A stretch of 64,000 nt of DNA from Planctomycetota bacterium (GTDB taxonomy: Bacteria; Planctomycetota; UBA11346): NCBI GenBank assembly GCA_038231435.1, contig JBBRLJ010000019.1, positions 1-64,000 of the forward strand. Reading direction: 5' to 3'. This document shows, piece by piece, positions 7,307-43,063 of the stretch. Made by a program: the position numbers and the translations under genes. The first letter of the stretch is position 1; each line of letters begins with the position of its first letter. Below the pieces are notes generated by a model. The model was not told where the DNA came from and searched no databases. It saw nothing but the letters and a program-made list of their open reading frames with translations.

Positions 7307-7364
7307 GGATTCGAGTGTACCCTGTCCAGGTATGGGACGCTGCCCATGGGAGGATTCCGGACAA

Positions 7365-7535
7365 TATATATCAGAGGTGATCTCTAATGGCAGATTTGTC
7401 ATCGGAAGCTCTCTCTTTCAGCGAAAAAGATCGGTTGTCCAGTTGTATAGCCGCTCAGCGTCTTATAAAGGACATGATGCGAGTGTATATCAGATATAAA
7501 ATTCGTATATCAGATTATGATTCATCTGATGCACT
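7365..7535. promoter_or_regulatory. AT-rich divergent promoter region with operator-like sites
   Basis: TATATATCA-GAGG-TGATCTCTA (7365-7386); GTATATCAGAT directly repeated at 7485 and 7505. Same core motif as at 9383, 18092, 21707 and 25806. Confidence 0.65.
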
Positions 7536-7586
7536 GCTGGCCAGGCTATCCAAGACCCCGACACTGACGCGTTGAAAGATCACGAC

Positions 7587-8066
7587 ATGACCAACTCTTC
7601 CACCAGCTCAGGCGCAGGCATCCGCTGCGGCTTCACGTTCATCGAAGTCATCTGCATTCTGCTCGTGGTCACCTTCGGCCTCATCGGTGTGATCGGGCTG
7701 GTATCGCACGGCCTGATCGTGGCGCAGAAGTCCCAAGGGACTTGCACCGGCATGCTGACGGCGGTCACCGTCGCCGACGATGCCAAGCCGCTGCTTCCGC
7801 CCGACATGCAGACGAGCTGGAACTATGTGACCTATGATCTCAATAGTGCGGGCGCGGTCACCAACACCATCGTCGGCTTCATCAATGGCTACTACGTGAA
7901 GCGCGTCGAGACCACCGGGCCGAGCGACATCATCGCCACCGACAAGGACACTGGAGTAGTCCAGACGCGCTCGGTGGCGGTCGCGGTCGACGTTTACGAC
8001 ACGCTCGGCGGCTTGCTCGTCGCTTCCTACTCGACGCGGTTCATCCGGCAACGAGGCCTGCCATGA
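7587..8066 (+). CDS. PilV/GspI-like small pseudopilin
   Basis: RCG|FTFIEVICILLVVTFGLIGV, ~160 aa; stop overlaps the next start (ATGA). Confidence 0.8.
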   Translation: MTNSSTSSGAGIRCGFTFIEVICILLVVTFGLIGVIGLVSHGLIVAQKSQGTCTGMLTAVTVADDAKPLLPPDMQTSWNYVTYDLNSAGAVTNTIVGFINGYYVKRVETTGPSDIIATDKDTGVVQTRSVAVAVDVYDTLGGLLVASYSTRFIRQRGLP

Positions 8067-9118
8067 GCGCACCCACTGGCGAGCGCGGCGTCACGCTGCT
8101 CGAGTTGATGGTCAGCATCACGCTCGCCCTGGCGCTGACGACCATGGCCATGGTCGCGTTCTTCAGCATCCGCAAGCTCGTATCCCGCGCCGAGTCGAAG
8201 CTCGCCATGCACGCCTCGACCCAAACCATCTACCACGCGCTGCACAAGACGATGGCTGGCCTCCAGCAGACCTGCGCATTCGTCGTCTACAGCAAGGCGA
8301 ATACCGAAGTCGATACCAGCAAGCCGCCCAACGACGAGATTTCGATCGTGTTCATGCGCGGCAAGGAAGACACCCAGGACTTCCAGTACTTCACCGAGTC
8401 CTACGCCGGCCAGAGCTACAAGGCGACGATGAACTCGGACCTGTTGTGGGAGAGCTGGACCTGGAAGGACGAGACCTACACCAAGTCCGATGGGACGGTC
8501 GTTTCCGGCGGAACGCTCTACTCGGCGACGAACTCGCCGGTGCGGCAGTTCAGCCTGCCCTGGGGCACGAGCATCTCGGGACAGGCCTACAATGGCCAGA
8601 AGTTCGATCTCTTGCCGCAGCCCCGGCGCACTCTCGACACCACCGACATGACGAGCTGGCAGAAGACGCTCAACGACAACCAGTACTTCCCGGATATGAC
8701 CGCAGGCTCGAAAGACCTCTTCGATCCCACGCTGGCGACGGTCTACAATCGCAAATCGCTCTACAGCGCGAGCGATATCGGAGATTGGGAGGAGCTGGTC
8801 TACAAGCGCTCGCCCGCGCTCACGCAGGTGAGCGCCTTCTCGATGCAGGTGATCCCGCACGACGGGTCGGCCGCGGGCACCGTGCTGGTCCAGGGCAGCC
8901 GCAGCACCACGCCCAATCAGACCAAGATCTACCCCGGCGTCTGGCTCGATGGTCGGCTCGCAGCGACCCTGTCGAGCGCTCAGACCTTCTCCAGCAGCGA
9001 TGCCGCGAAGCGCCCGAAGCTCCTCCGCTTCTGCTTCACACTCACCGATACGAGCCTGAAGTTCTCGCAGAGTTTCTCGTTCTCGTTCCTGCTGCCTGGA
9101 TTGGCGCCTCCGCTCTAG
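8063..9118 (+). CDS. PilW/GspJ-like pseudopilin
   Basis: ERG|VTLLELMVSITLALALTT class III signal; 351 aa; follows the PilV-like gene. Confidence 0.8.
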   Translation: MSAPTGERGVTLLELMVSITLALALTTMAMVAFFSIRKLVSRAESKLAMHASTQTIYHALHKTMAGLQQTCAFVVYSKANTEVDTSKPPNDEISIVFMRGKEDTQDFQYFTESYAGQSYKATMNSDLLWESWTWKDETYTKSDGTVVSGGTLYSATNSPVRQFSLPWGTSISGQAYNGQKFDLLPQPRRTLDTTDMTSWQKTLNDNQYFPDMTAGSKDLFDPTLATVYNRKSLYSASDIGDWEELVYKRSPALTQVSAFSMQVIPHDGSAAGTVLVQGSRSTTPNQTKIYPGVWLDGRLAATLSSAQTFSSSDAAKRPKLLRFCFTLTDTSLKFSQSFSFSFLLPGLAPPL

Positions 9119-9370
9119 GCTGACGCAGACAGGCCGACGCAGACGGCTCAGAGCTCTCGGCCGATAATCCCAGCGTCGCGGGCGGCAGGTAGAGACCAAG
9201 CATCCGCATCGCCCGCATCGCGCCGCCGACCACGCGCCGCGAACCATCGGCGAGGCCCGACACGCAACGCATTGGTCCATGGGAGCTAAGCAACCACACG
9301 AGACGTGCGGTGAGGGCTTCGATCGTCCCACGCGTGATCTTGCCTCACGGGAGTTGACCCTTCCGATCCC

Positions 9371-9404
9371 TGATATACAACATATGCATCATAACTGATA
9401 CACT
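9371..9404. promoter_or_regulatory. Putative operator (shared palindrome)
   Basis: TGATATACA half-site (9371-9379) plus TATGCATCA-TAAC-TGATACACT (9383-9404), immediately upstream of the 9423 start. Confidence 0.65.
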
Positions 9405-9422
9405 TTAACCAATGGAGTCCTC

Positions 9423-10043
9423 ATGGCAGTGCCGCGCGGATGGATGTCGATCGTAGCCCCAGCCCTGGCGATGTGCCTCTCCTCCAGCGCGTTCGCTGCG
9501 CAGGGAGACGGCCAGAAGGTCCTGGATACCTTCGAAAAGGAGCCCGACGGCTGGAAGTTCGTCGGCGGCGAGGAGTTTCCCGGGGCGGTCGGCTGCTTCC
9601 TCCGCGACACCAAGGTCGCGCACGACAGCAAGGTGTCCTACCGCATCGACGCTGACTTCACCAAGGGCGGCGCCTACGTGGGTTCGTTCAAGGACATGAC
9701 CTCGCTGAGTCCCGACATCAAGGAGCTCCACCTGTGGGTGAAGAGCGAGAATGTCGGCTCGGTCGGCGTGCGCCTCATCGACAGCAGCGGGCAATGCCAT
9801 CAGCTCAACGGCGGCCTGCAGATCAATCCGAAGAAGGACTGGCAGGAGATCGTCCTACGCGTGTCCGAGATCATCGGCGGCGAGCATTGGGGCGGCTCGA
9901 ACGACGGCCAGTGGCACGGCCCGGCGCACGGCTTCGGTCTGAACATCGGCAAGAACGCCCTGGTCAAGGACAGCCCCGCGAAAGGCTCCTTGTGGATCGA
10001 CGACATCACCTACGTGGTCGCAGACAAGAAGCCCAAGAAGTGA
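9423..10043 (+). CDS. Secreted carbohydrate-binding-module-like protein (CBM11/galactose-binding-like fold)
   Basis: Signal peptide ending SAFA|A. D-x-FE start, LHLWVKS, VRLIDSSG, WQEIVL and terminal GSLWIDDI are typical of CBM jelly-rolls. GGAG RBS. Confidence 0.65.
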   Translation: MAVPRGWMSIVAPALAMCLSSSAFAAQGDGQKVLDTFEKEPDGWKFVGGEEFPGAVGCFLRDTKVAHDSKVSYRIDADFTKGGAYVGSFKDMTSLSPDIKELHLWVKSENVGSVGVRLIDSSGQCHQLNGGLQINPKKDWQEIVLRVSEIIGGEHWGGSNDGQWHGPAHGFGLNIGKNALVKDSPAKGSLWIDDITYVVADKKPKK

Positions 10044-10211
10044 TGACGTGGCGTGAGCTGGTGATGACCGAGCCGGCCCACCACACGATCCGCATTTCGA
10101 GCACCCCCTCCGATTCCCCTCCAGTGTCGCTCATCGATCGCCATGCCATCGGTTCCATGACGGGCACATGGATGCGTTTAACGAACGGTTCCACCATCCG
10201 CTCCATGCCCT

Positions 10212-12155
10212 ATGCCTGTGCTCCAGCATGATCGCGATCTCGAGACCCGAGCAGCCGTGAGCGACTCGACCCGCGGCCTGCGCCAACGCAGCGAGCTCCC
10301 CTGGCTGATAGCGATCCTGGCCACGCTGCTCGGCGGCTGGTGGGCGCTCAATGCCTTCGTCTTCCGCGTCTATCCGCCGGATCCGAGCGAGCACGGCCGC
10401 TTCTCGCTGGTGCGCTGGGGCACCGATCCCAATCCCGCGCGCCAAGAGCAGGTGAGCATCTTCAACCGCGCGCACCGCGACCAGCACATCAAGGTCGAGG
10501 TCGTGCCGGGCGCCGCATCGATGCAGGCCGTCATCACCCGCAGCGCGGCCAACGACGCGCCCGAGGTCATCGACGCCTACGGGCCCGAGGATCTGTTCCA
10601 GTACGCCGCGAAGGGCATCGCCAAGCCGCTGAATCCGTACCTCAAAGAGACGCATTTCGACCCGGCGACCCATACCTGGCCGGCCCTGGTCGAGACCATC
10701 AGTGCCCCCAATCCGGCGTACCGTCCAGGCGTCGACGACCCGATCGATGCCCGCCTGTGGTACTCGATGCCCAACAACATCTTCTACGACCTCTGCTATC
10801 TCAACCGCACGCTCTACCTGCGCGCCGCAGAGGAGCAGCGCGCCGCTGGACGCCCGGTGCCGCCTGAACCCTGGGTGGGATGGACCTGGTGGGACTTCGC
10901 CGCGTTGGCGAAGATCATGCAGCGCCACGGCGCCGACGGTCGATTCGTCAGCTTCGGCGCGACGCCGCCCAACACCGAGGCCATCGCAGTGATGATCGGC
11001 GCTGGCATGCGCGGCGAGGACCGGGCCGGATTCGACGCGCTCGACGCCGCCACCAAGGCGCAGCGCGGCCTAGCCGGCCTGTCGTGGGACGACTGCGTCG
11101 CGACCACCAGCACCGCCGCCACCTCCGCCACTGCAGCGGGGAGCACGCCGACCATCTGGCCGAATCGCGTGGCGATCACCCAGGCCCTGCAATTCTCGTA
11201 CGATCTCCAGAACGTCATCCATGCGGTGCCGTCGCAGAGCGATCAGCAGCAGATGGCGACCGGCGGCGGCGCCTACGGCGGCTCCGGACTCAACGGCCAG
11301 TTCCTCGCCGGCAACTGCGGGATGCTGATCATGGGTCGCTGGTACCTGGGCCAGATCCGCGCGAACGTCGCCTTTGATTGGCGGCTGGTGCGCATGCCGC
11401 GCTGGGTGCCGTACGCGGAATGGGCGCGCTGGCAGCGCGAGGGCAAGGGCCCACACGAGCGCGACGGGGACTGGGGCGACCGCGAGCACCCGGACCGTGG
11501 TTACCAGATCCAGGTGGGGACGCGCTCGACCTTCCTCAGCAGCAGCGCGCGCGATCCGCGCCAGGCCTTCGCCTTCCTGCGCTTCATCGCCACCGATCCC
11601 GACTACAACCGCCTGATCCTGCTCGAGGACGGCGCCGGCGCCGATTACGCGATGAGTGTCGACTACATGGGCAAACTGGATCCGCTGGTGCCTGACGAGT
11701 TGGTGAAGCGCTCGCCCGAGCAGGAGCTGGGCGCGATCCGCTGCCAGCTGCCCTTGTCGCGCTGGCCCTGGCCCAACTCCAATGCCAAGGCCACCATCGC
11801 CTGGAGCACGCTGCCGTCGTGGATCGGCCGCTCCGAGCTGGCCACCGATGCCCTCGCCTCGGGCGCGCCGGCTACCGACTTTCCCGAGCTCGGGCGCTTC
11901 ACCGGCGAATCCTCGATGCGCACTTCCCAAGCCGTGGGTGAAGGCCTGGCGAAGCGCCTGTGCTCGAGCCTCGACGCGCTCGCCGCCGAAGGCATGCAGA
12001 TGTCGCGCATCCCCAACGCCGCGCCGCCGTCGCTGCGGACCATCGCATGCCTGGTCGCGGTCCTCGTGCTCGGGGCCTGGCTGAGCGCCGGCGTGGTGAT
12101 GAACGCGCGGCGCCGGCGACGCGCGCTCGACGAGCCGGAGCCCGCACATGGGTGA
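10212..12155 (+). CDS. Sugar ABC transporter extracellular solute-binding protein
   Basis: VRWGTDPNPARQEQVSIFN, APEVIDAY, LCYLNRTL, WTWWDF, FLAGNCGMLIMGRW, AFAFLRF. First gene of a carbohydrate ABC operon. Hydrophobic segments at both termini; true start may be GTG 10257. Confidence 0.75.
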   Translation: MPVLQHDRDLETRAAVSDSTRGLRQRSELPWLIAILATLLGGWWALNAFVFRVYPPDPSEHGRFSLVRWGTDPNPARQEQVSIFNRAHRDQHIKVEVVPGAASMQAVITRSAANDAPEVIDAYGPEDLFQYAAKGIAKPLNPYLKETHFDPATHTWPALVETISAPNPAYRPGVDDPIDARLWYSMPNNIFYDLCYLNRTLYLRAAEEQRAAGRPVPPEPWVGWTWWDFAALAKIMQRHGADGRFVSFGATPPNTEAIAVMIGAGMRGEDRAGFDALDAATKAQRGLAGLSWDDCVATTSTAATSATAAGSTPTIWPNRVAITQALQFSYDLQNVIHAVPSQSDQQQMATGGGAYGGSGLNGQFLAGNCGMLIMGRWYLGQIRANVAFDWRLVRMPRWVPYAEWARWQREGKGPHERDGDWGDREHPDRGYQIQVGTRSTFLSSSARDPRQAFAFLRFIATDPDYNRLILLEDGAGADYAMSVDYMGKLDPLVPDELVKRSPEQELGAIRCQLPLSRWPWPNSNAKATIAWSTLPSWIGRSELATDALASGAPATDFPELGRFTGESSMRTSQAVGEGLAKRLCSSLDALAAEGMQMSRIPNAAPPSLRTIACLVAVLVLGAWLSAGVVMNARRRRRALDEPEPAHG

Positions 12156-13098
12156 CCGCAAGCGGCCATGGCGCGAACTCGGCACTGGGCTGGCCTTCAT
12201 CAGCCCGAACCTGCTGCTGTTCCTGGTGTTCACCCTCGCCCCGACGCTGTTCACGCTCGGCCTGGCGTTCTTCCGCTGGGACCCGTTCAGCTCGCCGTCG
12301 TTCGTCGGCTTCGACAACTTCAACCGGCTGCTCAGCGACAACAGCTTCTGGTACTACCTGTTCAACACCGCGGTGTTCCTGCTCGGGCTGCCGCTGTCGA
12401 TGGCGGGTTCGCTCGCGCTCGCGGTGGTGCTGAGCCAGCCGCTACGCGGGGTCATCGCCTACCGCACCGTCTACTACCTGCCCACCCTCACCAGCGGTGT
12501 CGCAGTGTTCCTGCTCTGGAAGGTGATGTACAACAAGGAGGGCGGCCTGATCAACGCCATCGCCCTGCCGATGCTCAACGCCGTCGGCGCGAGCCATGGC
12601 GGCCATCAGCTGACCATGGCGGACATGCCCGACTGGCTGAACCAGGCGTGGACGGTCTGCGGCGTCGAATGCTACCTCGCCAAGCCCGCGCTGATCTTCA
12701 TGGGCATCTGGGCCGGGGTCGGCGGCGGCAACATGATCCTCTACCTGGCGGCGATCGCGGGCGTTCCGCCGGAACTCTACGAGGCCGCCGAGATCGACGG
12801 CGCATCGCGGTGGCGGCGCTTCTGGGACATCACCTGGCCGATGATCGCGCCGACCACCTTCTTCATCATCGTCATGGGCACGATCGGTGGCTTGCAGGGC
12901 GGATTCGAGATGGCGTACCTGATGACCCAGGGCGGCCCCGACGGCTCGACCACCACCGTCGGCTACTACATCTTCACCAAGGGTTTCGGCGATTTCGAGT
13001 TCGGCTACGCGGCGGCGATCTCGTTCGCCCTATTCGGACTGGTCGCCGCGATGACCGCGCTCAACTGGCGCTTCGGCTCCAAGGCCGGAGGGTACTGA
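12148..13098 (+). CDS. Carbohydrate ABC transporter permease (MalF/UgpA type)
   Basis: FVGFDNF, YRTVYYLP and EAA loop ELYEAAEIDGASRWRRFWDITWP. Confidence 0.92.
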   Translation: MGDRKRPWRELGTGLAFISPNLLLFLVFTLAPTLFTLGLAFFRWDPFSSPSFVGFDNFNRLLSDNSFWYYLFNTAVFLLGLPLSMAGSLALAVVLSQPLRGVIAYRTVYYLPTLTSGVAVFLLWKVMYNKEGGLINAIALPMLNAVGASHGGHQLTMADMPDWLNQAWTVCGVECYLAKPALIFMGIWAGVGGGNMILYLAAIAGVPPELYEAAEIDGASRWRRFWDITWPMIAPTTFFIIVMGTIGGLQGGFEMAYLMTQGGPDGSTTTVGYYIFTKGFGDFEFGYAAAISFALFGLVAAMTALNWRFGSKAGGY

Positions 13099-13099
13099 G

Positions 13100-14773
13100 A
13101 TGGCCCGCGAAGGAGTGTCCCGCCCCGCCGCGCTCGCCAGCCACGTGCTGCTGATCCTGGTCGGCATCACCATGCTGCTGCCGTTCCTGTGGATGGTGGG
13201 CACCTCGCTCAAGGGCGAGGGCGAGGTCTTCCAGCACAACGTCATCCCCGAGGCGATCGGCCTCGGCGCCGAGGGCACGCCCGTGCGCACGCGCGACGGC
13301 AAGCCGGTGTACGCGGCGGTGGCCGCCGCCGCGGCCGCGCCGGATACCCCGGAGCATCCGGCGTGGATCCGCGGCGACGAGATCCGCGTGCACCTCGGCA
13401 CGCCGGTGCAGCAGGGCTCGAGCGGCGAGCGCGCGGCGATGCCCGACGGCGAGAGCCTCAGCGACGATCTCGGCATCCCGGCCCAGCTCGGCAACATCCT
13501 GCGCGATGGCGATCGCGCGGCCGAGCTTGGATCCCTGGCGCGCTTCCGCGACCCGCGCGCGTTCGATAAATACGCCGAGGTCGCGGTCGTCGAACGCGGC
13601 TTCACCGCTCCCGGTTTCGACGCCCAGGCCAACGAGGCCACGGCGCGCGCGTGGTTCTGCGAGCGTCCGGGCAGGTACCGCTCGGACGCGGCCTGGGAGA
13701 AGCTGGTGGCGACCCGCTTCGGCGGTTGCATCCCGCTGATGCTCGATCACGCCCTGTCGGACGAGTGGGCCTCGCACAGTGGCAAGGCCGAGCCGGTCAC
13801 GATCGGCGGCGTGAGCGTGGCGAACCGCAATCCCAAGCCGACGACCCCATTCTATCAGTTCAAGAACCTCAGCTGGGGCCAGCCCGGGCAGCCGGTGCGC
13901 GACAAGACACTCGCGGCGGTGCTGTGCCGCGCCTCGGGCGAGGCGGTGCGCTTCACGCCGGCCTTCCCGGTATTCCGCACCGAGGACGATGCCCTCAAGG
14001 CCGACGAACGCAGCGACCTGATGGTGTTCGTGGGCGACGAACCGGCGCCACGCACCATCGCCGGCCGCGAGCTCGCGCTCACCCGCCACGCGCGCTTCGT
14101 GTGGTCGAACTACCAGACCGTGCTCACCGATCCCAACGTCAAGATGACGCTGTTCGCCTGGAACAGCCTGTTCATCTCGGTGTCGGTGGTGCTGCTGCAG
14201 ATCCTCACCTCGTCGCTCGCCGCGTTCGCCTTCAGCCGTCTGGACTGGAAGGGCCGCGACGTGGTCTTCCTCGCCTATCTCGGCACCATGATGGTTCCTG
14301 CCGCGATCACCATGATCCCCAACTACCTGATCCTGCAGAAGCTCGGCTGGCTCAACAGCTTCAAGGGCCTGATCCTGCCCGCGGCCGCCAGCGCCTACGG
14401 CACGTTCATGCTGCGGCAGTACATGCTGACCCTGCCGAAGGGACTCGAAGAGGCCGCGCGCATCGATGGCGCCAGCGTACTGCGCGTGTGGTGGGACATC
14501 ATCATGCCGCTCTGCAAGCCCGCGGTGATCACCCTGGCGATCTTCACCTTCGGCGGCACCTGGATGTCGTTCACCTGGCCGCTGATCGTCGCCCCCGACG
14601 AACAAGTGCGCGTGCTGCCGGTGGCGCTCCAGCAGTTCTCATCTGGGCAGAGCACCGCGTACAGCCTGCTGATGGCGGCATCGCTGGTGATGATGCTGCC
14701 GATGCTCATCCTCTTCGTGTTCGGGCAGAAATATTTCGTCCGCGGCATCCAGCTCGGCGGCGTGAAGGGCTAG
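13100..14773 (+). CDS. Carbohydrate ABC transporter permease (MalG/UgpE type) with large insertion
   Basis: [13 protein letters not shown] ... WSNY ... NSLFIS ... [11 protein letters not shown] ... [15 protein letters not shown]. About 280 aa of extra soluble loop after TM1. Confidence 0.9.
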
Positions 14774-14781
14774 GCGGAGAC

Positions 14782-15927
14782 ATGGCGGACATCACCCTCG
14801 GCAAACTGGTCAAGCGCTACGACAACGGCTACACTGCCGTCAAAGGCATCGACCTGCGCATCCGCGACAAGGAGTTCATGGTCCTGGTCGGCCCCTCGGG
14901 CTGCGGCAAGAGCACCACGTTGCGCATGATCGCCGGCCTCGAGGACGTGTCCTCGGGCGAGATCCGCATCGGCGAGCGCGTGGTCAACGACGTCGAGCCG
15001 AAGGACCGCGACATCGCCATGGTCTTCCAGAATTACGCGCTCTACCCGCACATGACCGTGTACGAGAACATGGCGTACGGTCTCAAGCTCCGGCGCATGC
15101 CGCGCGGACAGATCGATGCCCAGGTCGGCGAGGCCGCGAAGATGCTGGGCCTCGAGGCCCAGCTCCCCAAGCTGCCGAAGCTGCTCTCGGGCGGGCAGCG
15201 CCAGCGCGTCGCGCTCGGACGCGCGATCGTCAGGCACCCAAAGGTGTTCCTCTTCGACGAGCCGTTGTCGAACCTCGACGCCAAGCTGCGCGCCGAGATG
15301 CGCTTCGAGCTCAAGTCGCTGCAGAGCCGCCTGCAGACCACCATGGTCTACGTCACCCACGACCAGATCGAGGCGATGACCCTGGGCGATCGCATCACCG
15401 TCATGTCGGTGGGCGAGATCCAGCAGGTGGCGACGCCGACGACCATCTACGATTTCCCATTCAACCGCTTCGTCGCCAGCTTCATCGGCACCCCGGTGAT
15501 GAACTTCCTCGCCGGCCGCCTCGAGCAGGCGGAGGGCGGCATGCGCTTCGCTATCGACCAGGGACCCGCGCTGCGGCTGCACGCAGCGCACCAGGAGTCG
15601 CTGCCGGCTATGGCCGGCATGGACACGGTCATCGGCGTGCGCCCCGAACACCTCAGCCATGGCGCCTTCACGCCCACCGCTCAGACCGCGACGCGCATCG
15701 AGGCCGAGGTCGCCGTCATCGAGAACATGGGCGATCACCAGTACGTCTACCTGCGCATGCCGGGCAGCTCCGAACCGGTGGTGATGAAGTGCAACAGCCA
15801 CCATCGCTGCAAGCCTGGCGAGAAGATCCCGGTGAACATCGACACCGCGCTCGCCCACGTGTTCGCTGACCGCAGCGACCATGCGCGCACGCTGACGCTC
15901 CCGATCGGTTTCGCCCAGCAGCAATAG
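14782..15927 (+). CDS. Carbohydrate ABC transporter ATP-binding protein (MalK/UgpC type)
   Basis: Start MADITL (GGAG RBS). Walker [52 protein letters not shown], and a TOBE-type C-terminus. Confidence 0.95.
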
Positions 15928-15985
15928 CCTGTGCCGGACTAGCTTGCGTCGGACTTGCCTGCGCCGGCGCTGCGCGTCGGTCGAG

Positions 15986-17590: not shown

Positions 17591-17596
17591 CGGTCG
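17513..17596. repeat. Degenerate 12-bp tandem repeat (7 units)
   Basis: acgcatcggatg ctgcatcggatg cttgagttgatg catcaccgattg tttcatcgcttg tttcatcgggtg ctgcatcggtcg. On the minus strand it reads MQHP MKQA MKQS VMHQ LKHP MQHP MRHQ. Confidence 0.7.
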
Positions 17597-17723
17597 CCTC
17601 CAGGCTCGCCGGCGAATTCATTCGTGGGTGAAAACGATCTCGTCCACGCGCATATCGCACTCGAACCTCGTCGGAGCCAACCGCATGATGTCGATTTACC
17701 CGCCCTTCCCTGCAACATACCTC

Positions 17724-17759
17724 GCATCGAACCACGCATCGAACCAGGCATCGAATGCA
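17724..17759. repeat. 12-bp tandem repeat (3 units)
   Basis: GCATCGAACCAC GCATCGAACCAG GCATCGAATGCA. Confidence 0.7.
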
Positions 17760-18091
17760 GGCGTGGCTATCGACGCCAGCGCCGCCAGCAGGTGCTCCAT
17801 CCGAGATCCGGCGCCACCAGAGTCGCCTGATGGAGAAGCCCATGCGGGTTCGGATGGCGACTCGCTCGAGGCGGGGGGCGCGGAAGCGATCAGCACTTCC
17901 GCTGGGTGCACCAGCACGCACGCGCTCAAGCACCTCGTGAGCCTGCACATCAGGCCCGCCGTGGTACGTCGCCCGGACGCGGGAAGCCGCGCGAGGTCGC
18001 GATCGGGAAGCACATCTCGATGCTGGACCGGGTGCATGAGTGGCTCCGGGATGCTCCTGGAACCCGAGGGCTTCCCATGGAACTACGGTTA

Positions 18092-18116
18092 TGTATATCA
18101 ATACTGATGCATATCA
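18092..18116. promoter_or_regulatory. Putative operator (shared palindrome)
   Basis: TGTATATCA-ATAC-TGATGCATA, in an AT-rich patch between the divergent zinc-ribbon and kinase genes. Confidence 0.65.
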
Positions 18117-18420
18117 AGTATACGGAAGCTCCTCAAGCGATTTCCATCGCGGTTTGTGCGCTTACCGGCGTCGGCGTGCTACCCGCCCGGACTCACGCCC
18201 ACGGTGCGAGCGCACCACAATCCAGCATCAACCTGGCTGGGCTTCCTCGGCCGGTGGACGCCGTCGATGCGCAATGGCATTCGCGTCCGGCAACCCGGTC
18301 AGGCGGGGGGACGCAGCCCGGACAGAGGCACACGCACCAGTGCCAGCGACCCTGTCTTTCTTGTCGGGCAAATGGACCAGAGACATCCACCGGCTATCGT
18401 CCCACCATGGTCACGCGCGC

Positions 18421-21400
18421 ATGAGCGATCCGGCAGCCGAGCTGAAGAAGAAGTACCGCCGCACGGTCGCCGCGAAGTCCTTCTCCGCCGCCGGCGTGCG
18501 CGAGGCGGACGAGGAAGCGAACAACGCACAGCCCTCCACCGACCAGCCCCAGCTGAACGGTTCCAGCGCCACCGTTCGCCTGCGCCGGGTCGGCAGCACC
18601 ACGGTCGGCGGCCAACGCTTCCGCATCGATGAAGCCCTGGGCGTCGGCACCACCGGCGAAGTCTACTCGGTGTTCGATCGCAACCTCGAGCGCCTGGTGG
18701 CGGTCAAGGTGCTGCGGCGCACGCTGGTCGACAACGAGGACGAACTCAAGGCGTTCGTCAACGAAGCTCGACTCACCGCCTCGTTGTCGCACCCGAACGT
18801 CCTGCCGGTCCACGAGTTCGACGTCACCCACGATGGCCAGCCCTACTTCAGCATGAGCAGGATTGCCGGCGAATCGCTGGGCAGCATCCTCGAGAAATCC
18901 ACCCTGGATTTCCGCCACGCCGTTGTCGGCAACTTCAATGCGCTCGTCGGCATCATGATCGGCGTGGGCAACGCGCTCGCCTACGCCCACCACCAAGGCG
19001 TCGTCCATCAGGACGTCAAGCCAGACAACATCATGGTCGGTGAATTCGGCGAGGTGTTGCTGCTCGATTGGGGCAGCGCGGTGCGTGCCGGACTCGACGG
19101 CACGGTGACCAACCGCATCTACGGCACTCCCCTCTACATGAGCCCCGAGCAGGCCAGGCGCGACCATGTCGACGCGCGCAGCGACGTGTACTGCCTCGGC
19201 GCGACCTTCTTCCATGCGCTGACGCTCAGGTTGCCAGTGTGGGATGACGATCCCGACCGCTTCTGGGAGATGAAGCGCGACGGCGAGATCCAGCCGCCGA
19301 CCGAGGAGGAGCAGGAGAAGATCCCGGCGCAGCTGCTCGGCATCGCGCTCAAGGCGATGGCTCCGTCCCCAGAAAACCGCTATTCCAGCGCCAAGGAATT
19401 CATCGCCGACCTCAAGGATTGGCAGGCCGGGCTGGCGGTCAGCGCCTACCGGGATTCCATCGGCGTCAGGTTGCGGCGCTGGCACCGCCGCAACGCCAAG
19501 ATCATCTGGCCGGCGGCGATCATCGCGGGCATGGCGATCGGCTTCTCGCTGTATCTGCACGCGGAGCGGCTCAAGGAGCTCGCGGAATGGGGCGCGCCGA
19601 TCGTCACCGAAACATTCAGCGACGATTCCTGGCAATCACGTTGGACGCCGATGGATCCGGGGACCTTCGCCACTCAGGACGGTAAATTGGTGACCAAGGG
19701 CGAACGCGCGTCGTTCCTGGTCTACAACAAGCGCCTCAGCGGCAGCGTCGCCATGGAGTTCGACGGCGTGATGCCGCTCGACACCAGGCCGTGCGATCTC
19801 TCGGCGGTGTGGTGCGAAGGCAACGTCTTCGAGACGGCGGGGCCGAAATTCAACGGTCGCACCTACTTCCTGCAGACCGGCGCCCGCGACAACATCGTGG
19901 CGATGATACTCGAACCGAAAGACGCGCGCCAACTCTCGCTCAAGCGCCTGCACCTGGTCCCCGGCCAGTCCTACCACATCCGCGTCGTCATCGACGGGCT
20001 GCACATGGAGCTGCAGGTCGATGGCCAGACGCTCTGCAGCTACGATGACGTGTTCCCGTTCACCTCGGGCTACCTCGCGCTCTACGGCTATTACCCCGGC
20101 AAACTTTTCGACAACGTGAGGATCTACAACCGCGGTGTGCCACAGAAGATCTCGGTGCTCGCGATCGGCGACAGTCTCTACCAGATGGGGCTCTTCGATG
20201 CCGCGATGACGCACTACCAGCGAGTGATCGATTCGCACGGCGGCACCGAGCTCGCCGACGCGGCACTGTTTCGCATCGGCCTCTGCCAGCTCGTGCAAGG
20301 ACGGTGGAGCCAGGCCCGCGCGAGCTGGGAGGGCGTCCGCGACCCGGCGCTCAAGCTGCAGGTGCAGATCCACGACATGGATCACCTCTTCGACACGCGC
20401 ACGTTCACCGAGCTGGCGAACAGCTTCTCGGACGCTTACGAGCATCACCCCGAATTGCGTTCCGACCTACGCAGTCATTGGCGTTCCTGGGTCAAGGATC
20501 TCAATTTCGATCCGCCCGAATCCCTGCTGCCGCTCCTCCAACTCGAGGACGGGCATTTCCCGGCAGAAGAGGACTCCGTCACCTCCACCTTCAACATCCT
20601 GGATCGGCTCGGCCGCTGGGATGAGGCGGCGAAGCGTTTCGGGCAGGATCCCCAGGTCGGTCCATGGGCCCTGCTGGCCCTCGACCGCTACGAGGAGATG
20701 AACAAGAATTTCGCGGATTACCCCCTATCTCCGTGCACCGCGCAGATCGAGCGAGGCGAATACGATCTCGCACTCCCTGCCTCGCGGCAGTACGACTGGA
20801 TGCGCAAGGAATTGCTGCTGAGCACCGGTCGCTTCGAGGAGTACGCCAGTGAATTCGGCACCGATCCGAAACTCCTGGTGATGACCGGGCGCGCCCAGGA
20901 GGCGTTCGAGTTGCCAAACCCGCTCCCGAACTTCTCGGTGGAGAACGGAGAACGCGCGATCGCCCTGATGCAACTGGGCAAGCGCGAAGCCGCGCTCGCC
21001 TATGCCGAGGGACATCCGAAGGATTCCTGGAGCGACGACGATCGCGCGCGCGTTCTGGTGTATCTCGGCCGAGGCGCCGAGGCGGTACCGCTCGCCCGCG
21101 AGCTGCAGGCCAGGCACGTGGCGACCACCGGTGCCGCGCTCGATGCGGCGATCGCCGGCGATCTCGAACTCGCGCATCGTCGGGCGCAGGATGCCGCGAG
21201 AGTGCCCTTGTCGCTCTCCTTTCCGCACGGCTGGTTCGAACACTACGTGGTCCTGCCCGCGCTCGATTCCGGCAAGCTGACCGACGTCGCGCCCGCGCTG
21301 GCCGCTGTGGTCAAGTCTGGCCGCTACGAGCATCACCAACGCCCGTGGTATTTCGCGCGACTGGTCGCTGGCGAGGCGTCCGACGAGGAATACCTGAAGC

Positions 21401-21639
21401 AGCCGTTCCTTCCGGATGCGAAGGGCACGCTGCTCCTCGGCCATGCCCTTCGCCACGATCTGGCAAACGAGACCGAAGCGGCGCTGGCCGATTACCGTGC
21501 CTACCTCGCGCTGCCCATGGACCAACGCGGCGTCGACGCGGTGAACGGGCTCGGCGATCCGCTGATGGAGCGTTTCTGCATCTGGCGCCTCGCGGTGCTG
21601 GCTCCGGCTCCGGCTCCGGCACCTCCTCCTGCCCCCTAG
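18421..21639 (+). CDS. Hanks-type Ser/Thr protein kinase with TM, beta-sandwich (DUF1080/LamG-like) and TPR-like regions
   Basis: LGVGTTGEVY, VAVK, HPNV, HQDVKPDN, LLDWG, GTPLYMSPEQ, SDVYCLG. TM IIWPAAIIAGMAIGFSLYL, then a beta-rich domain (YHIRVVIDG...GYLALY...FDNVRIY) and helical repeats. Start MSDPAAE at 18421. Confidence 0.9.
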   Translation: MSDPAAELKKKYRRTVAAKSFSAAGVREADEEANNAQPSTDQPQLNGSSATVRLRRVGSTTVGGQRFRIDEALGVGTTGEVYSVFDRNLERLVAVKVLRRTLVDNEDELKAFVNEARLTASLSHPNVLPVHEFDVTHDGQPYFSMSRIAGESLGSILEKSTLDFRHAVVGNFNALVGIMIGVGNALAYAHHQGVVHQDVKPDNIMVGEFGEVLLLDWGSAVRAGLDGTVTNRIYGTPLYMSPEQARRDHVDARSDVYCLGATFFHALTLRLPVWDDDPDRFWEMKRDGEIQPPTEEEQEKIPAQLLGIALKAMAPSPENRYSSAKEFIADLKDWQAGLAVSAYRDSIGVRLRRWHRRNAKIIWPAAIIAGMAIGFSLYLHAERLKELAEWGAPIVTETFSDDSWQSRWTPMDPGTFATQDGKLVTKGERASFLVYNKRLSGSVAMEFDGVMPLDTRPCDLSAVWCEGNVFETAGPKFNGRTYFLQTGARDNIVAMILEPKDARQLSLKRLHLVPGQSYHIRVVIDGLHMELQVDGQTLCSYDDVFPFTSGYLALYGYYPGKLFDNVRIYNRGVPQKISVLAIGDSLYQMGLFDAAMTHYQRVIDSHGGTELADAALFRIGLCQLVQGRWSQARASWEGVRDPALKLQVQIHDMDHLFDTRTFTELANSFSDAYEHHPELRSDLRSHWRSWVKDLNFDPPESLLPLLQLEDGHFPAEEDSVTSTFNILDRLGRWDEAAKRFGQDPQVGPWALLALDRYEEMNKNFADYPLSPCTAQIERGEYDLALPASRQYDWMRKELLLSTGRFEEYASEFGTDPKLLVMTGRAQEAFELPNPLPNFSVENGERAIALMQLGKREAALAYAEGHPKDSWSDDDRARVLVYLGRGAEAVPLARELQARHVATTGAALDAAIAGDLELAHRRAQDAARVPLSLSFPHGWFEHYVVLPALDSGKLTDVAPALAAVVKSGRYEHHQRPWYFARLVAGEASDEEYLKQPFLPDAKGTLLLGHALRHDLANETEAALADYRAYLALPMDQRGVDAVNGLGDPLMERFCIWRLAVLAPAPAPAPPPAP

Positions 21640-21688
21640 GCCGCACGTGCGCGGGGATATCTAAACCCCTGCGATACGGGGGGCTGGC

Positions 21689-21737
21689 TTGACACGCGGA
21701 CTCTGCTATACATCAGTACTGATGTAGCTGATATACT
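21689..21737 (+). promoter_or_regulatory. Promoter/operator of the GntR-LacI regulator
   Basis: TTGACA (21689-21694), then the perfect 18-bp palindrome TACATCAGTACTGATGTA (21709-21726) and an extra half-site TGATATACT (21729-21737). Confidence 0.7.
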
Positions 21738-21778
21738 CCGACCGGTCCCGATCGTCGTCACCTCCATCGGAAGCGAGC

Positions 21779-22885
21779 ATGGCCACCAAGACCCGAACCA
21801 AGATCAAGGAGTTGCTCATCCGGCGGCTCCAGACCATGGCCATCGACGGCAAGCTGCCGTCCGATCGTGAGTTCGCGAAGGAATTCAACGTCGCCTTCCT
21901 GACCATCAACCGGGTCATGCGCGAACTGCAGTGGGAAGGCTACGTGGTGCGCCGCCCGCGGCTCGGCACCTTCCTCGCGAGCAAGGAGCGGTCGGTCGCG
22001 AACGAGCACGACGACCAGGGAAACCTCGGCAGCGTCGCGGTCATCTATCCCAACTACTTCTCGTTCCACTTCTGGCAGCATGTGCGCTACGTCGAGGAGT
22101 TCGCGGTGAAGAACCGCCTGCGCCTGCTCGAATTCAAATTGAACCAGGACAGCACCTACGACCGCGCCTTGGCCTATGCCCGGCAGGCGGACAACCTGCG
22201 CGGCGCGCTCATGCTGCCGATTCCCGATTCGCTCAACGACGAGACCCTCGGCCGGCTCGATTCGCTGGGCTGCCCGCTGGTGCTGTTGTCGACTCACGGT
22301 CCCCTCGGGAACCGCAAGAACCTCTACTGCATGAACGTCGATTCGGAACAGCAGGGCAAGCTCGCCGCCGAGACCCTGCTGGCGAAGGGTCATCGCAAGC
22401 TGGCGTGGGTCCAGAACGAGCCGAGCCCCAATCCGCTCGTGCTCAAGGGCATGCTCGGCGCCTTGCGCGCGAATGGGCTGCGCGCCACCGATCTCACCTG
22501 CATCGGCCGCGGCATCAGGGCCTGGGAAAACAGCCGCGAGGCCGGCTACCGCCTCACCTGCCAGCTGCTGGACACTAGCGACGCCACTGGCGTGTACTTC
22601 GACTCCGCAGCCGGCCCAGCCGGCGCGATGCGCGCCCTGAGCGAACGCGGTCTGCGCTGCCCGGACGACATCAGCATGGTCTCGCCCTGCAGCCAGTCGG
22701 GCGACGAGGATTATTTCATTCCGCCGCTGACGTCCCTCGAGTGGGACTGGCGCGAGGAAGTGCGACTGGCCTTCGAGATCATCCTCGGGCGAACGGTTTC
22801 GACCGAGCGCGAGATGCTGTTTCCAGCGCGTCTGGTCGAGAAGTCCAGCATCGCTGCGCCACGCCAGATCACCACCACCGCCTGA
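21779..22885 (+). CDS. GntR-family regulator with LacI-type sugar-binding domain (AraR-like)
   Basis: wHTH KLPSDREFAKEFNVAFLTINRVMRELQWEGYVVRRPRLGTF; C-terminal LLAKGHRKLA, RGLRCPDDISMV, PPLTS. Confidence 0.9.
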   Translation: MATKTRTKIKELLIRRLQTMAIDGKLPSDREFAKEFNVAFLTINRVMRELQWEGYVVRRPRLGTFLASKERSVANEHDDQGNLGSVAVIYPNYFSFHFWQHVRYVEEFAVKNRLRLLEFKLNQDSTYDRALAYARQADNLRGALMLPIPDSLNDETLGRLDSLGCPLVLLSTHGPLGNRKNLYCMNVDSEQQGKLAAETLLAKGHRKLAWVQNEPSPNPLVLKGMLGALRANGLRATDLTCIGRGIRAWENSREAGYRLTCQLLDTSDATGVYFDSAAGPAGAMRALSERGLRCPDDISMVSPCSQSGDEDYFIPPLTSLEWDWREEVRLAFEIILGRTVSTEREMLFPARLVEKSSIAAPRQITTTA

Positions 22886-22994
22886 GATCGATGCCGGAGC
22901 CCAGCGCCGCGGCGTGGGTTTCGTCATCGTGCCACGACCGTAGCCCCGACACGAGCCCCTTCGTCCGATGACGCGCGCCCGCGCAGGAGTCCGC

Positions 22995-25604
22995 ATGACC
23001 CGGTTGACCTTCCATCTGATCGCCAACGCCCATCTGGATCCGGTCTGGCTGTGGGACTGGCGGGAAGGCATGAACGAAGGCATCGCCACCTGCAAGGCGA
23101 TGCTCGATCTGATGGATGAGTATCCAGAGTTCACCTTCGTGCGCGGCGAGGCGGCCATCTACCGCCATATCGAGGAGCATGATCCGAAGATGTTCCGCCG
23201 CATCGAAAAGCGTGTGGCGCAAGGCCGATGGGACGTGGTCGGCGGCACCTGGATCCAGGCCGACACCAACCTGCCATCGACCGAAACCTTCGTGCGCCAG
23301 TACCTGCACGGCCAGGACTACCTCGCCAAGCGCTTCGGCAAGCCGGTGCGGGTCGCATGGGCGGCGGATTCCTTCGGCCACGCCGCGGGGCTTCCCGACG
23401 TGATGGCCGGCGCGGGCATCACCGGCTTCGCCTTCACCCGCCCCGACGAGCGCGTCGTGCCGTTGCCCCTGCCGGCGTTCTGGTGGGAGGGCTGCGGAGG
23501 CTCGCGCGTGCTGTCCTACCGACCGATGTCCGGATGGTACGGCAGCGAGCGCCATGAGGTCGGGCCGAAGCTCGACCGCCTGCTCGAGGCGGCCTCCAAG
23601 CAGCCGCTGACCCAGGTCGGCTTCTTCTATGGCCTCGGCAACCATGGCGGCGGCGCGAGCCGGCGCCATCTCGACGAGATCCGCGATTGGCAGCGACGCC
23701 ACCCCGAGGTCGAGGTCGTGCATTCGGGCCTGCATCGCTTGCTCGCGGCGGTCGCCGACGACGCGCGCAAACAGCGCATCGAGTTGCCCGTGCACCGTGG
23801 CGAGCTGAATTTCTGCCTGCGCGGCTGTTACGCTTCCGTCGCCAAGTTCAAATGGCCGTTCCGACGCGCCGAAGCGCTGCTGCAGGCGAGCGAGACGCTC
23901 GACGCCCTCGCCTCGACCAGGATCGCGGCCAAACCCGCGGATCTCGACGCCGAATGGGAGGGCGTGCTGTTCGGCTCGTTCCACGACATCCTGCCTGGTT
24001 CGTCCATCGAACGCGCCTACGACGATCAGCTCGCCTGGCTCGGCGCGGTCACCCACCGCTGCCAGCGCCTCGACCTCGCGTCGATGAACGTCCTGGCCTC
24101 GCGCATCGACATCGATGTGCCGTCGGTCACCGGCGACCACCCCAGCGCGATCCCCTTCCTGGTGTGGAATCCGCAGCCGCGACCGTTCGTCGGACACATC
24201 GAGCTCGAGGGCAGTCTCGATTACCGCCCGATCTGGCCGTACTCCGACAAGGTCGACCAGCTCCCGGTCGAAGTGCGCAGCGCCGATGGTACGGTGGTGG
24301 CGCACCAGGTGGTCTCGACCGAGCACCGCTCGATGGTGAACCTCGCTTGGCGCAAGCGCGTGGTGGTGCCTGTGCGCCTGCCCGCGCTCGGCTGGCAGGT
24401 GATGACCATGGGCTGGGTGGAAGGCGCGAAGAATCCGACGCTTCCCGATCCGGTTTCCGCGCCCGACGCCACCACCATCGACAACGGTGTCTACCGCGTC
24501 AGCGCCGCAAAGGGCGCCAAGGGCGTGTCGATCTCGAAGGACGGCAAACCCGTGTTCGGAGAGCCCGGATTGGGCGCCGTCGTGGTCGACGACCCCTGGG
24601 GTTCATGGGGCGGCATGGGCGAGGAGCCGGCATCGGTAGAGCTCACCAGTGTGCGCGAGCAATGGACGGTAGCCGCCGTGGAACTGCGCGAGCGCGGCCC
24701 CGAGCGCGCGTGTCTGTGGGTGCGCCTCGCTGGAGCGTCCTCGCGCATCGACCTGTCCATCATGCTGTACCGCGGCCGCGCCGCGGTGGACATCGGCGTG
24801 CGCGTGTTCTGGGCCGAGCGCAGCGCGCGCCTGCGCCTGACCATGCCCGGAGCCGAGTCCGCGGAATACCAGGTACCTGGCGGCAGCGCGACGCGCGGCG
24901 CCGTGGGCGAGGTGCCGGGCCTGCGCTGGGCGAAGGTCAGCGGACCTGGCCGCAGCTTCGGCTTCGTCAGCGACGCGCTGTCGAGCTTCGGGGTTTGGAA
25001 CCAGGTGTTCAGCGCGACAGTGGTGCGCGCCTCGCGCTACGCCGACGACGTGTCCACCGCGCCCGACGCGGTGCCGTGGGTGCCCTCGGTGGACTGCGGA
25101 GAGCTCATGTGCCGGCTGCTCATCGCGCCGGCCGACGACGACCTGCCTCGTCTGGCCGATGAGCTCGCGCAGCCGCCGCGGGTGCAGCACGTGCCGGCGC
25201 GGACCGCGCGTTCGGCCGATCTCGAGACCTCGGGATCATTCGCCGAGCTGCGCCCGCGCGGACTGGCGCTGCTCGCGCTGAAACCGGCGCGCGAAGGCGA
25301 TGGCCTGGTGCTGCGCGTGCTCGAGACCTCGGGGAAGCCCGCGAAGGCGTCGCTGACGTTGTTCGGCGCGGCGCTCGCGCTCGGCACGGTGGCCGCGCGC
25401 GGCATCGCCTCGTGGCGGCTGCTCCGCCGCGGTTCGCGTTGGAGCTGCGTCGCCTGCGATTCTCTCGAACGCCCTCTCGGCGCCCGATCGGGGTCGGCGG
25501 CACGCTCGGCGAAAGCGGTTGGTGGCTCGGCGCCGAAGCCGAAGCGCCTCCGGAAGGCGGTGGCGAGGAAGACCCCGGCGCGGCGGAAGGGCGCTCGACG
25601 CTGA
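22995..25604 (+). CDS. Alpha-mannosidase, glycoside hydrolase family 38
   Basis: HLIANAHLDPVWLW, VGGTWIQAD, WAADSFGH, FWWEG, YGLGNHGGG, FHDILPGSSI. AGGAG RBS; no signal peptide. Confidence 0.92.
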   Translation: MTRLTFHLIANAHLDPVWLWDWREGMNEGIATCKAMLDLMDEYPEFTFVRGEAAIYRHIEEHDPKMFRRIEKRVAQGRWDVVGGTWIQADTNLPSTETFVRQYLHGQDYLAKRFGKPVRVAWAADSFGHAAGLPDVMAGAGITGFAFTRPDERVVPLPLPAFWWEGCGGSRVLSYRPMSGWYGSERHEVGPKLDRLLEAASKQPLTQVGFFYGLGNHGGGASRRHLDEIRDWQRRHPEVEVVHSGLHRLLAAVADDARKQRIELPVHRGELNFCLRGCYASVAKFKWPFRRAEALLQASETLDALASTRIAAKPADLDAEWEGVLFGSFHDILPGSSIERAYDDQLAWLGAVTHRCQRLDLASMNVLASRIDIDVPSVTGDHPSAIPFLVWNPQPRPFVGHIELEGSLDYRPIWPYSDKVDQLPVEVRSADGTVVAHQVVSTEHRSMVNLAWRKRVVVPVRLPALGWQVMTMGWVEGAKNPTLPDPVSAPDATTIDNGVYRVSAAKGAKGVSISKDGKPVFGEPGLGAVVVDDPWGSWGGMGEEPASVELTSVREQWTVAAVELRERGPERACLWVRLAGASSRIDLSIMLYRGRAAVDIGVRVFWAERSARLRLTMPGAESAEYQVPGGSATRGAVGEVPGLRWAKVSGPGRSFGFVSDALSSFGVWNQVFSATVVRASRYADDVSTAPDAVPWVPSVDCGELMCRLLIAPADDDLPRLADELAQPPRVQHVPARTARSADLETSGSFAELRPRGLALLALKPAREGDGLVLRVLETSGKPAKASLTLFGAALALGTVAARGIASWRLLRRGSRWSCVACDSLERPLGARSGSAARSAKAVGGSAPKPKRLRKAVARKTPARRKGARR

Positions 25605-25689
25605 CGCCCCGCATCCGCCGCCGCGCGGATGATAGCTCGACATGATCCCTGGATCCCCCGACCACGGCGGGCGAAGGGGTTCATGCCAA

Positions 25690-25730
25690 ATAAATCATAA
25701 GTCTAGTTATCTCAGGTAGTTGACTAGACT
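25690..25730. other. AT-rich inverted-repeat site, possibly Xer dif-like
   Basis: ATAAATCATAA-GTCTAG-TTATCTCAGGT (11-6-11 layout with ATAA/TTAT core), overlapping the inverted repeat AGTCTAGTTA-N11-TGACTAGACT. Confidence 0.3.
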
Positions 25731-25805
25731 ATCGAAGACATGCTCCCGGCCGGTGACGCAGACACCCGGTCGCCGCGAGGCGGTCAACGCACGTCACAGC
25801 AATGA

Positions 25806-25827
25806 TGTATATCAGTTATGATATACA
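25806..25827. promoter_or_regulatory. Putative operator, perfect copy of the shared palindrome
   Basis: TGTATATCA-GTTA-TGATATACA, ~30 bp upstream of the 25859 start. Confidence 0.72.
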
Positions 25828-25858
25828 GATGTCACACCGCATGCACGGGAGGAACGGC

Positions 25859-27370: not shown

Positions 27371-27377
27371 GGCTCCC

Positions 27378-35782: not shown

Positions 35783-35876
35783 GGCGGGATGATCAATCCG
35801 GTGGGCGGCTCCGCAAGCCGGCCGGAAGCCCGCAGACTGGCGCCGCTGTCGGCTGTAACATAGGGTATCCTCTGAT

Positions 35877-39080: not shown

Positions 39081-39099
39081 CTCACGCGCTCGAGACCGA

Positions 39100-42359: not shown

Positions 42360-42413
42360 GTGGACCATCCTGATTGGTTTTACGAAATATCTCGGCTGGA
42401 GATTAAACGATGC

Positions 42414-43019: not shown

Positions 43020-43063
43020 GGGGTTCCTCGTGTGGAAGTGGTTGTCATGGGTGGATAGACGAT

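Follow-up and report, generated by a model that had tools for sequence, protein, structure and literature searches.

A predicted GntR–LacI-type sugar regulon that includes a pilus-tip cassette in a planctomycete

In Bacteroidota, polysaccharide utilisation loci bring sensor, surface-binding, import and glycosidase genes under common regulation, substrate by substrate. A locus resembling these, with the same four kinds of gene together, lies in the 64,000-nt stretch of planctomycete DNA analysed here (the window; the start of contig C19, JBBRLJ010000019.1, of Planctomycetota bacterium assembly GCA_038231435.1), around the gene for a regulator with a GntR-type DNA-binding head and a LacI-type sensor (21779; genes are named by their first position). 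It differs in having no SusC/SusD pair among the proposed regulon genes (Pfam and NCBIfam) and no TonB-dependent receptor, three of which are encoded elsewhere in the genome. Five palindromic sites in its promoters are likely operators of 21779, and the genes that they head include a complete set of pilin-like tip genes. The host is uncultured, and all functions are inferred.

The closest described regulator is AraR of Bacillus subtilis, which likewise joins a GntR head to a LacI-type sensor, binds palindromic boxes that are paired at several promoters, with one at its own gene, and controls sugar uptake and glycosidases (PMC1950556, PMC4494728). The AraR box is ATTTGTACGTACAAAT, a GT..AC palindrome with an arginine–G contact, whereas the sites in the window read AT..AT and 21779 has phenylalanine at that position. 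AraR box pairs are spaced for looping, whereas the boxes in the window abut at 16 bp. As described in those accounts, the ara regulon has no pilins, kinase or ExbBD, and the regulon in the window has all three. AraR-type regulons are already known, and what is new is the operator box and the pilus-tip content; searches of mainly open literature turned up neither a planctomycete sugar regulon that includes tip cassettes nor any account of this box.

Pili are also already tied to glycan use. In Akkermansia, a bacterium of the Planctomycetes–Verrucomicrobia–Chlamydiae group, the type IV-like pilus genes MUL1/MUL2 are linked to glycan attachment and uptake (PMC13174399); MUL2 is one conserved four-gene locus, whereas the planctomycete genome has many oversized G-H-I-J-K cassettes, some under their own sugar regulator. 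A pseudopilin of Verruconatronum alginivorum, one with 67 paralogues, lies in a polysaccharide cluster and rises on alginate (PMC13274419), but this is a single pilin seen in a single-replicate proteome, and that account, as far as it goes, assigns it no operator or regulator. In planctomycetes, a survey of carbohydrate-active enzymes calls such mechanisms little studied (PMC11131199), and dextran is bound on pili-like fibres, with the route of large-glycan uptake left uncharacterised by its describers (PMC5394234). These genomes carry many pilin cassettes, and a sugar regulator's operator on a complete tip cassette would tie tips to sugar use directly at the genetic level.

Five sites and a conserved outward-facing box

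The host genome (G000; 5.2 Mb, 67% GC, 88% complete) belongs to a class of 48 genomes that form a single family. Genes were called with a purpose-built codon model (3931 in G000) and annotated with Pfam and NCBIfam. Genomes are labelled G0xx, with the contig after a colon, and database loci of relatives L0xx.

A sequence-only reading of the window had reported ATCA-N4-TGAT palindromes in five intergenic regions. The core occurs in the window exactly five times (7370, 9388, 18097, 21712 and 25811), against 0.65 ± 0.77 expected; none of 100 shuffles gave five, all five copies are intergenic in promoter-type gaps, and the 22-mers quoted in that reading agree with the sequence. The extra half-sites it mentioned (GTATATCA or TGATATAC) were located at 7485, 7505, 9371 and 21729. 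Because independent contigs of three DNA runs from one study repeat the sites without differences (X1 all five; X2 7370 and 9388; X3 18097, 21712 and 25811), the sites are not assembly errors; one other letter differs across the 11-kb piece of X1.

Bare ATCA-N4-TGAT was rejected as a genome-wide signal: it has 34 copies in the host genome, with no enrichment over other spacer lengths, and its longer form is common in low-GC relatives. With their flanks, and against a neutral background, the five sites outscore every other position in the genome, and we attribute their specificity to these flanks because, when each site is left out in turn, only 3–7 positions in the genome equal or beat it. Against local shuffles, sites 3–5 are strong (0/2000). 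A sigma-70 promoter scan was uninformative (4 found, 2.3 ± 1.5 expected).

Orthologues of 21779 occupy eight distinct loci at 30–48% identity (G017:C266, G019:C184, G425:C527, G422:C507, L046, L048, L038 and L039; the G425:C527 locus was also reached as L045/G409). The conserved unit in these relatives is an outward-facing 12-bp box, TGATATATATCA (TGAT-RYRY-ATCA), and each site in the window combines two such boxes, spaced 16 bp apart, with inner halves that form ATCA-N4-TGAT. The palindromes first noticed are real, but as an operator the motif had been read inside-out: the symmetry centre kept by relatives is that of TGAT-RYRY-ATCA. In the window, the inner halves are perfect (10/10) and the outer halves match at 24 of 40 bases, where 10–12 are expected, and 16-bp pairing also occurs in L038, G017 and L045 with one partner imperfect; for the window sites themselves, testing this spacing involves some circularity. 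We adopt this tandem, outward-facing geometry for the operators with good confidence from the sequence comparison. Alternatively, one dimer of the same regulator might occupy an inward-facing 20-bp site, RYRYATCA-N4-TGATRYRY, which fits the perfect inner and partial outer halves, and a linker that is loose in the structure model (residues 71–80) would allow either geometry. That arrangement is unlikely, given that L046, G019 and L039 keep single outward boxes without an inner partner and that the outer halves exceed chance; its 4-bp centre is also variable, whereas the centre of GntR palindromes is usually conserved in the account of PMC4494728.

Two lines of evidence set the outward box apart from a general promoter element and link it to the regulator. 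First, it follows the orthologues. The exact box lies upstream of the regulator's unit in five of the eight loci (twice in L046), L039 has it there with one mismatch and L048 with two, and in G422, where the regulator's promoter is off the contig, a one-mismatch box comes after the regulator. These are rare sequences in their genomes, the exact box being present in a sole copy in G017, G019 and G409 and in only two copies in G410. Among 47 genomes of the family, all four that have an orthologue contain it, against 1 of the 43 others, where it is inside a gene (Fisher p 2.8e-5, overstated because two of the four orthologue genomes share a genus). G411 has an exact box before the genes for an FAD oxidoreductase and a glycoside hydrolase (GH) of family GH65. 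The more distant homologues in G029 (32%) and G135 (24%) have different recognition helices and no box in the upstream stretches examined.

Second, a matrix built from nine sites of relatives and zero window sites, some of the nine having first been spotted with a window-derived matrix, was scored on the 2566 promoter-type gaps of G000. By tandem score the window gaps rank 1, 2, 3, 7 and 14, so that 5 of the 9 local gaps are in the top 15 (p 4e-10), and by single boxes they rank 2, 3, 6, 10 and 13. These ranks speak against a general promoter element, the refuting case that the sequence-only reading had named. Elsewhere in G000, C32:44609 (tandem rank 6) lies beside a GH16 gene with a second half-site 200 bp on and is a fair candidate for a distal member. 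The top single box, C14:11197, has no partner and heads non-sugar genes, and three other distal sites (C5:17692, C7:36824 and C30:13659) were not placed in the regulon.

The boxes of L038, L045 and G017 read TTGAT-ATAT-ATCAA and so match what we take to be the FNR/CRP-type consensus, TTGAT-N4-ATCAA, as oxygen control through such a site would predict. This explanation is largely refuted and its probability is close to nil. The host has one exact consensus, which is inside a gene, and no Crp-type helix-turn-helix (HTH) above the cut-off in a genome 88% complete; the flanking T and A are not conserved while the centre is, and the box occurs as one copy per genome beside a GntR gene.

The regulator and its recognition helix

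The N-terminal winged HTH of 21779 matches PF00392 at 31.4 bits (cut-off 27) and its C-terminal GalR/LacI-type sensor matches PF13377 at E 2.5e-18, with LacI cores found by Foldseek at E 1e-16; the structure model has a predicted local distance difference test score (pLDDT) of 89. Judged from these domains, the protein has the architecture of the AraR subfamily.

HutC-type GntR proteins have the consensus GT-N4-AC, with the arginine at FadR 45 or AraR 63 as the main G contact (PMC4494728). The boxes of the window resemble HutC-type boxes in length and AT-rich centre, and sister regulators adjoin TGGTATATACCA; two symmetric changes give TGATATATATCA, which is outside the family consensus as given there, and the sensor of 21779 is LacI-type, not UTRA. 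By the table offsets of PMC4494728, the G-reading position is Phe40 in 21779 (A39-F40-L41-T42, where S/T-R-x-T is usual), and throughout the orthologue alignment it is occupied by Phe, Tyr or Leu. Neither the G-reading arginine nor a GT..AC box is found at 21779, the box of which reads AT..AT, and on these grounds the protein is not an AraR orthologue. In the orthologue clade the motif A-F/Y-L-T goes with TGAT boxes; three S-R-M-T regulators adjoin canonical boxes, which read TGGTATATACCA for the two in G019 and TGTATATACA for the third, on contig C27 of G000. Because these arginine-keeping sisters adjoin GT..AC boxes, loss of the recognition-helix arginine goes with the change from GT to AT, and in the 21779 clade the GntR box and the recognition helix depart from the canonical form together.

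From its tracking of the orthologue across genomes, the GntR–LacI protein proposed earlier as the binder very probably does bind the five sites. It is also likely to regulate itself, as had been predicted: a palindromic box stands at its own promoter (21704–21731) and is kept in the orthologous loci. Two other proteins of the host might bind the sites instead, namely a sister GntR–LacI regulator on contig C1, which also has no arginine and whose sites score on the same matrix, and the GntR-FCD protein encoded on C8 by a gene that has a site with an ATCA-N4-TGAT core before it. We consider this very improbable, as the C1 sites form a motif of their own clustered round their own regulator, and elsewhere the presence of the outward box in a genome tracks the 21779 clade; in the window, one site is directly before 21779. 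The C8 sequence, ATCATATATGAT (G000:C8:56640, before the GntR-FCD gene), is found also on contigs C28, C33, C166 and C286 of G017 and is likely another regulator's box.

The tip cassette and the proposed circuit

Operator 1 and two half-sites share one divergent gap, from which a G-H-K-(J remnant)-G run is read leftward and an I-J pair rightward (Table 1). Sequence motifs give G, H, I and J a class III leader and a pilin helix, with PF07963 over the cut-off for two; the others have family matches below the cut-offs. Because the paralogous cassettes on contigs C27 and C18 of G000 run G-G-H-I-J-K, and the J remnant marks the old position of that gene, the cassette in the window is a rearranged but complete set. 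These genes share their gene set and N-terminal pilin motifs with the minor pseudopilins GspH-I-J-K of type II secretion systems and differ in the much larger size of their subunits, the lack of machine genes at the locus, family matches that are all below curated cut-offs, and a structure match that is not significant. No filament assembly machine is encoded in the locus; elsewhere in G000 there are 10 matches to PF00437 (ATPase) and 6 to PF00263 (secretin). The 'pilus-like filament' proposed earlier goes too far for the locus itself, as only tip-type pilins are present and the machine genes are elsewhere.

We consider it likely, on the comparative evidence, that the five sites are operators of 21779, each of two outward boxes 16 bp apart, through which five promoters are repressed until a sugar binds. 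The sites lie 16–56 bp before four start codons, which suggests repression, and their position, with the habits of the family, would have 21779 binding as two adjacent dimers over the promoters. Sugar binding to the LacI-type domain would then release the repressor; AraR provides the precedent for binding and sugar release (PMC1950556). The regulon would cover the G-H-I-J-K cassette across its divergent promoter, the secreted protein with a carbohydrate-binding module (CBM), the ABC importer, the zinc-ribbon/kinase pair, the regulator with GH38, and ExbBD with the TonB-like CBM9 protein. Once induced, the cassette would provide a specific tip for a type IV filament machine that is shared and has its genes at another place in the genome. 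The tip may capture a glycan, a motor-driven CBM9 arm and binding proteins would act in the periplasm, and the breakdown products would be handled by ABC import and cytoplasmic trimming by GH38. The regulator's ligand, once found, would be a candidate ligand for the tip and the CBM9 arm.

Whether the tip captures glycan or exports enzymes is close to evenly poised. We lean slightly towards capture, given how little secreted cargo the regulon contains and the binding of dextran by planctomycete fibres (PMC5394234); the structure model of the K-like protein favours neither. In the export version the regulon is real and the cassette would act as an adaptor that hands the enzymes or CBM proteins of the locus to type II secretion as cargo, which we regard as a serious but less probable account. 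It draws on the resemblance of the genes to GspG/H/I/J/K, on the secretins and ATPases of the genome, on a cassette operon in G019 that starts with a secreted GH-like gene, and on the export suggested for the alginate-induced pseudopilin in PMC13274419. The regulon, however, offers one small secreted protein and a GH38 that is likely cytoplasmic, little cargo for a six-gene cassette, and the H and K subunits are several-fold oversized.

Table 1. Predicted operators and genes of the proposed regulon (positions in the window)
Feature	Position	Strand	Remarks
Operator 1	7362..7389		Tandem pair with weak outer halves; 56 bp upstream of leftward G-H-K pilin operon; gap rank 7/2566
Half-site pair	7485..7521		Two GTATATCA 20 bp apart plus ATCA-N5-TGAT; ~70–100 bp before rightward I-J pair; weaker, role inferred
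Operator 2	9371..9407		Tandem 9380–9407 plus overlapping box at 9371; 16 bp before CBM gene; rank 14/2566
Operator 3	18089..18116		Genome's best tandem pair; divergent zinc-ribbon/kinase gap; rank 1/2566
Operator 4	21704..21740		Tandem plus extra half-site 21729; 48 bp before regulator, 10 bp after TTGACA hexamer; predicted autoregulatory; rank 3/2566
Operator 5	25803..25830		29 bp before membrane gene-ExbB-ExbD-CBM9 run; rank 2/2566
GntR winged HTH with LacI-type sensor, AraR-subfamily architecture	21779..22885	+	368 aa; PF00392 and PF13377
Small G-like pilin	357..1019	-	220 aa
Frameshifted remnant, 3′ end of J-like gene	1016..1270	-	48–57% identity to 8063–9118 in two frames
Giant K-like tip protein	1294..4743	-	1149 aa; position in paralogous cassettes
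Large H-like minor pilin	4785..6149	-	454 aa; PF07963; TIGR01708 below cut-off
Large G-like pilin	6146..7306	-	386 aa; TIGR01710 N-terminal match below cut-off
I/PilV-like minor pilin	7587..8066	+	159 aa; TIGR02523 below cut-off
J-like minor pilin	8063..9118	+	351 aa
Secreted stand-alone CBM-like protein	9423..10043	+	Atlas CBM11/CBM27/CBM30 at 0.94–0.95; E 1e-42 to the CBM of the enzyme at the head of the regulon in relatives
Sugar-type ABC importer	10212..15927	+	Four genes: membrane-anchored binding protein, two permeases, MalK/UgpC-like ATPase
Zinc-ribbon single-pass membrane protein	15986..17317	-	CxxC pairs, one transmembrane helix; divergent from kinase
Single-pass Ser/Thr kinase, outer domain and tetratricopeptide repeats	18421..21639	+	One of at least 21 full-length paralogues
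GH38 alpha-mannosidase-family enzyme	22995..25604	+	No hydrophobic leader, likely cytoplasmic
Membrane protein, no known family	25859..26533	+	Four predicted transmembrane helices
ExbB/TolQ and ExbD/TolR proton-motor pair	26603..27836	+	
TonB/TolA-like protein ending in CBM9 instead of TonB_C	27886..31011	+	PF06452; S-x3-H anchor, long helical stalk; start uncertain

Relatives, sister regulons and neighbouring genes

Pilins stand under the box in four of the eight orthologous loci. G019 has a whole G-H-I-J-K cassette, G422 a G-like pilin, L046 two pilins and L038 one. The commonest member in relatives is a secreted enzyme of ~1450 aa with repeated CBM domains, found in four genomes and called clan GH-A-like from NEP/TE motifs, which are typical of that clan. 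The full enzyme was not found in G000, where the 9423 protein is a lone copy of its CBM. In PDB searches, only CBM9 was matched by the relatives' enzyme and nothing by the ABC binding protein, and therefore no substrate can be read from them. Mannose, which the sequence-only reading had suggested for binding tests, and mannan are unsupported as inducers, because none of the eight orthologous loci showed GH38, the ABC importer or ExbBD-CBM9 under the box.

Several observations count against the regulon as drawn. The window has no perfect copy of the outward box (1–4 mismatches each), its invariant inner halves also suit a single inward-facing site, and Operators 1 and 2 stand out only moderately against local shuffles (p 0.009–0.02). 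Four of the eight orthologous loci, several on short contigs, have no pilin, and the kinase, like GH38 and the importer, was not seen under the box in any of the eight. None of six other ExbBD-CBM9 loci has the box (the one in G017 ends before the promoter; five others were examined, of which the one in G357 comes after a GntR–LacI gene of another kind). The model of the K-like protein is poor (pLDDT 49), with no lectin fold and the best GspK chains at E about 2–3 (3ci0_K at rank 2, E 2.1). Among sister boxes, 7 of the 10 exact copies in G019 are not on the cassette contig, and only 3 of 7 GntR–LacI genes lie within 20 kb of one of the 14 pilin clusters of G000 (p 0.02); for kinases the figure is 5 of 21 (p 0.04). 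The recurrence of sister regulons is a tendency, not a rule.

That tendency is nevertheless seen with other regulators and other boxes, in this genome and in others. On G000 C1:13900-44100 (L095, L096), a second GntR–LacI gene accompanies GH5-like and GH78 genes, a split pilin cassette and a paralogue of the kinase; five promoters there share an AT-rich motif resembling TATATATCAGTGAATC, with leave-one-out ranks of 2–8. A third GntR–LacI regulator, on G000 C27:12083-23908 (L088), has GH16, an intact G-G-H-I-J-K cassette and two canonical GTATATAC boxes in the divergent gap. G019:C184:1-36100 (L033, L034) packs into 36 kb three GntR–LacI regulators that use two different boxes, together with two complete tip cassettes, two receptor kinases and a zinc-ribbon gene. 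G019 has 10 exact copies of TGGTATATACCA (control 0). Three are on the contig that carries an operon of cassette, zinc-ribbon gene and kinase as well as a further kinase. Another stands immediately before ExbB-ExbD and a gene whose product is homologous to the CBM9 protein (28% over 378 aa) but has no CBM9 match in Pfam. The remaining six precede secreted, glycosidase-like or unrelated-looking genes. One of the four copies in G422 heads a kinase.

These recurrences bear on a further possibility, that the operators are real and that local shuffling swept pilin, kinase and ExbBD genes under them with no shared function. Regulon content does differ widely between genomes, the cassette in the window is rearranged (the J remnant), and the 21779 orthologue is missing from both same-genus genomes (61–79% complete). 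We nonetheless find chance shuffling unlikely, with each unit having its own site and the same cast recurring where regulator and box are different, as on contigs C1 and C27 of G000, in G019 and in G422. Beyond the shared regulon that we prefer, one may tentatively imagine that the class runs pilus-based polysaccharide loci, in which each GntR–LacI regulator would switch on its own giant tip cassette, kinase and CBM9 arm, so that one machine, re-tipped for each glycan, would do the job of SusC/SusD; we think this somewhat doubtful.

Two corrections concern the genes beside Operators 3 and 5. The kinase, whose start had been put at 18040, starts at 18421, so that the site noted at 18092 lies in a 1.1-kb divergent gap shared with the zinc-ribbon gene. 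The site noted at 25806 was said to head ExbBD-CBM9; that run does lie downstream, but its first gene is the membrane gene 25859, and ExbB follows. An Atlas search of the 25859 protein gave 0.81 at best, a lead only. In G019 a zinc-ribbon homologue shares a predicted transcription unit with the cassette and a kinase. In the window, the zinc-ribbon gene is preceded by imperfect 12-bp GCATC-rich repeats (17515–17580 and 17719–17755), which could belong to an N-terminal extension (open reading frame to 17590) or be another regulator's sites. The paralogous kinases of G000 are single-pass proteins with a similar outer domain, spread over many contigs.

The N, middle and C domains of GH38 are all present in the 22995 protein, a putative alpha-mannosidase in which Asn stands at the place of one Asp of the fungal enzyme. 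The ABC binding protein (10212–12155) has predicted transmembrane helices at both ends (32–50 and 611–629), which is unusual for its class. A second sugar locus in the window (33992–47985), with GH35, GH29, GH30/59-like and CBM4_9 genes, a LacI regulator, a single pilin and a receptor kinase, does not have this box. As in a TonB-ExbBD system, ExbB, ExbD and an anchored transducer are all present, the anchor being an S-x3-H motif that we take to be that of TonB; TonB_C and a linked receptor are absent at the locus and found only on other contigs of G000. The order of ExbBD and the TonB-like CBM9 gene is kept in six loci of relatives, and the family extends to 45 database relatives and 14 of the 48 class genomes, with a second, paralogous operon in the host at G000:C3:59616-64325.

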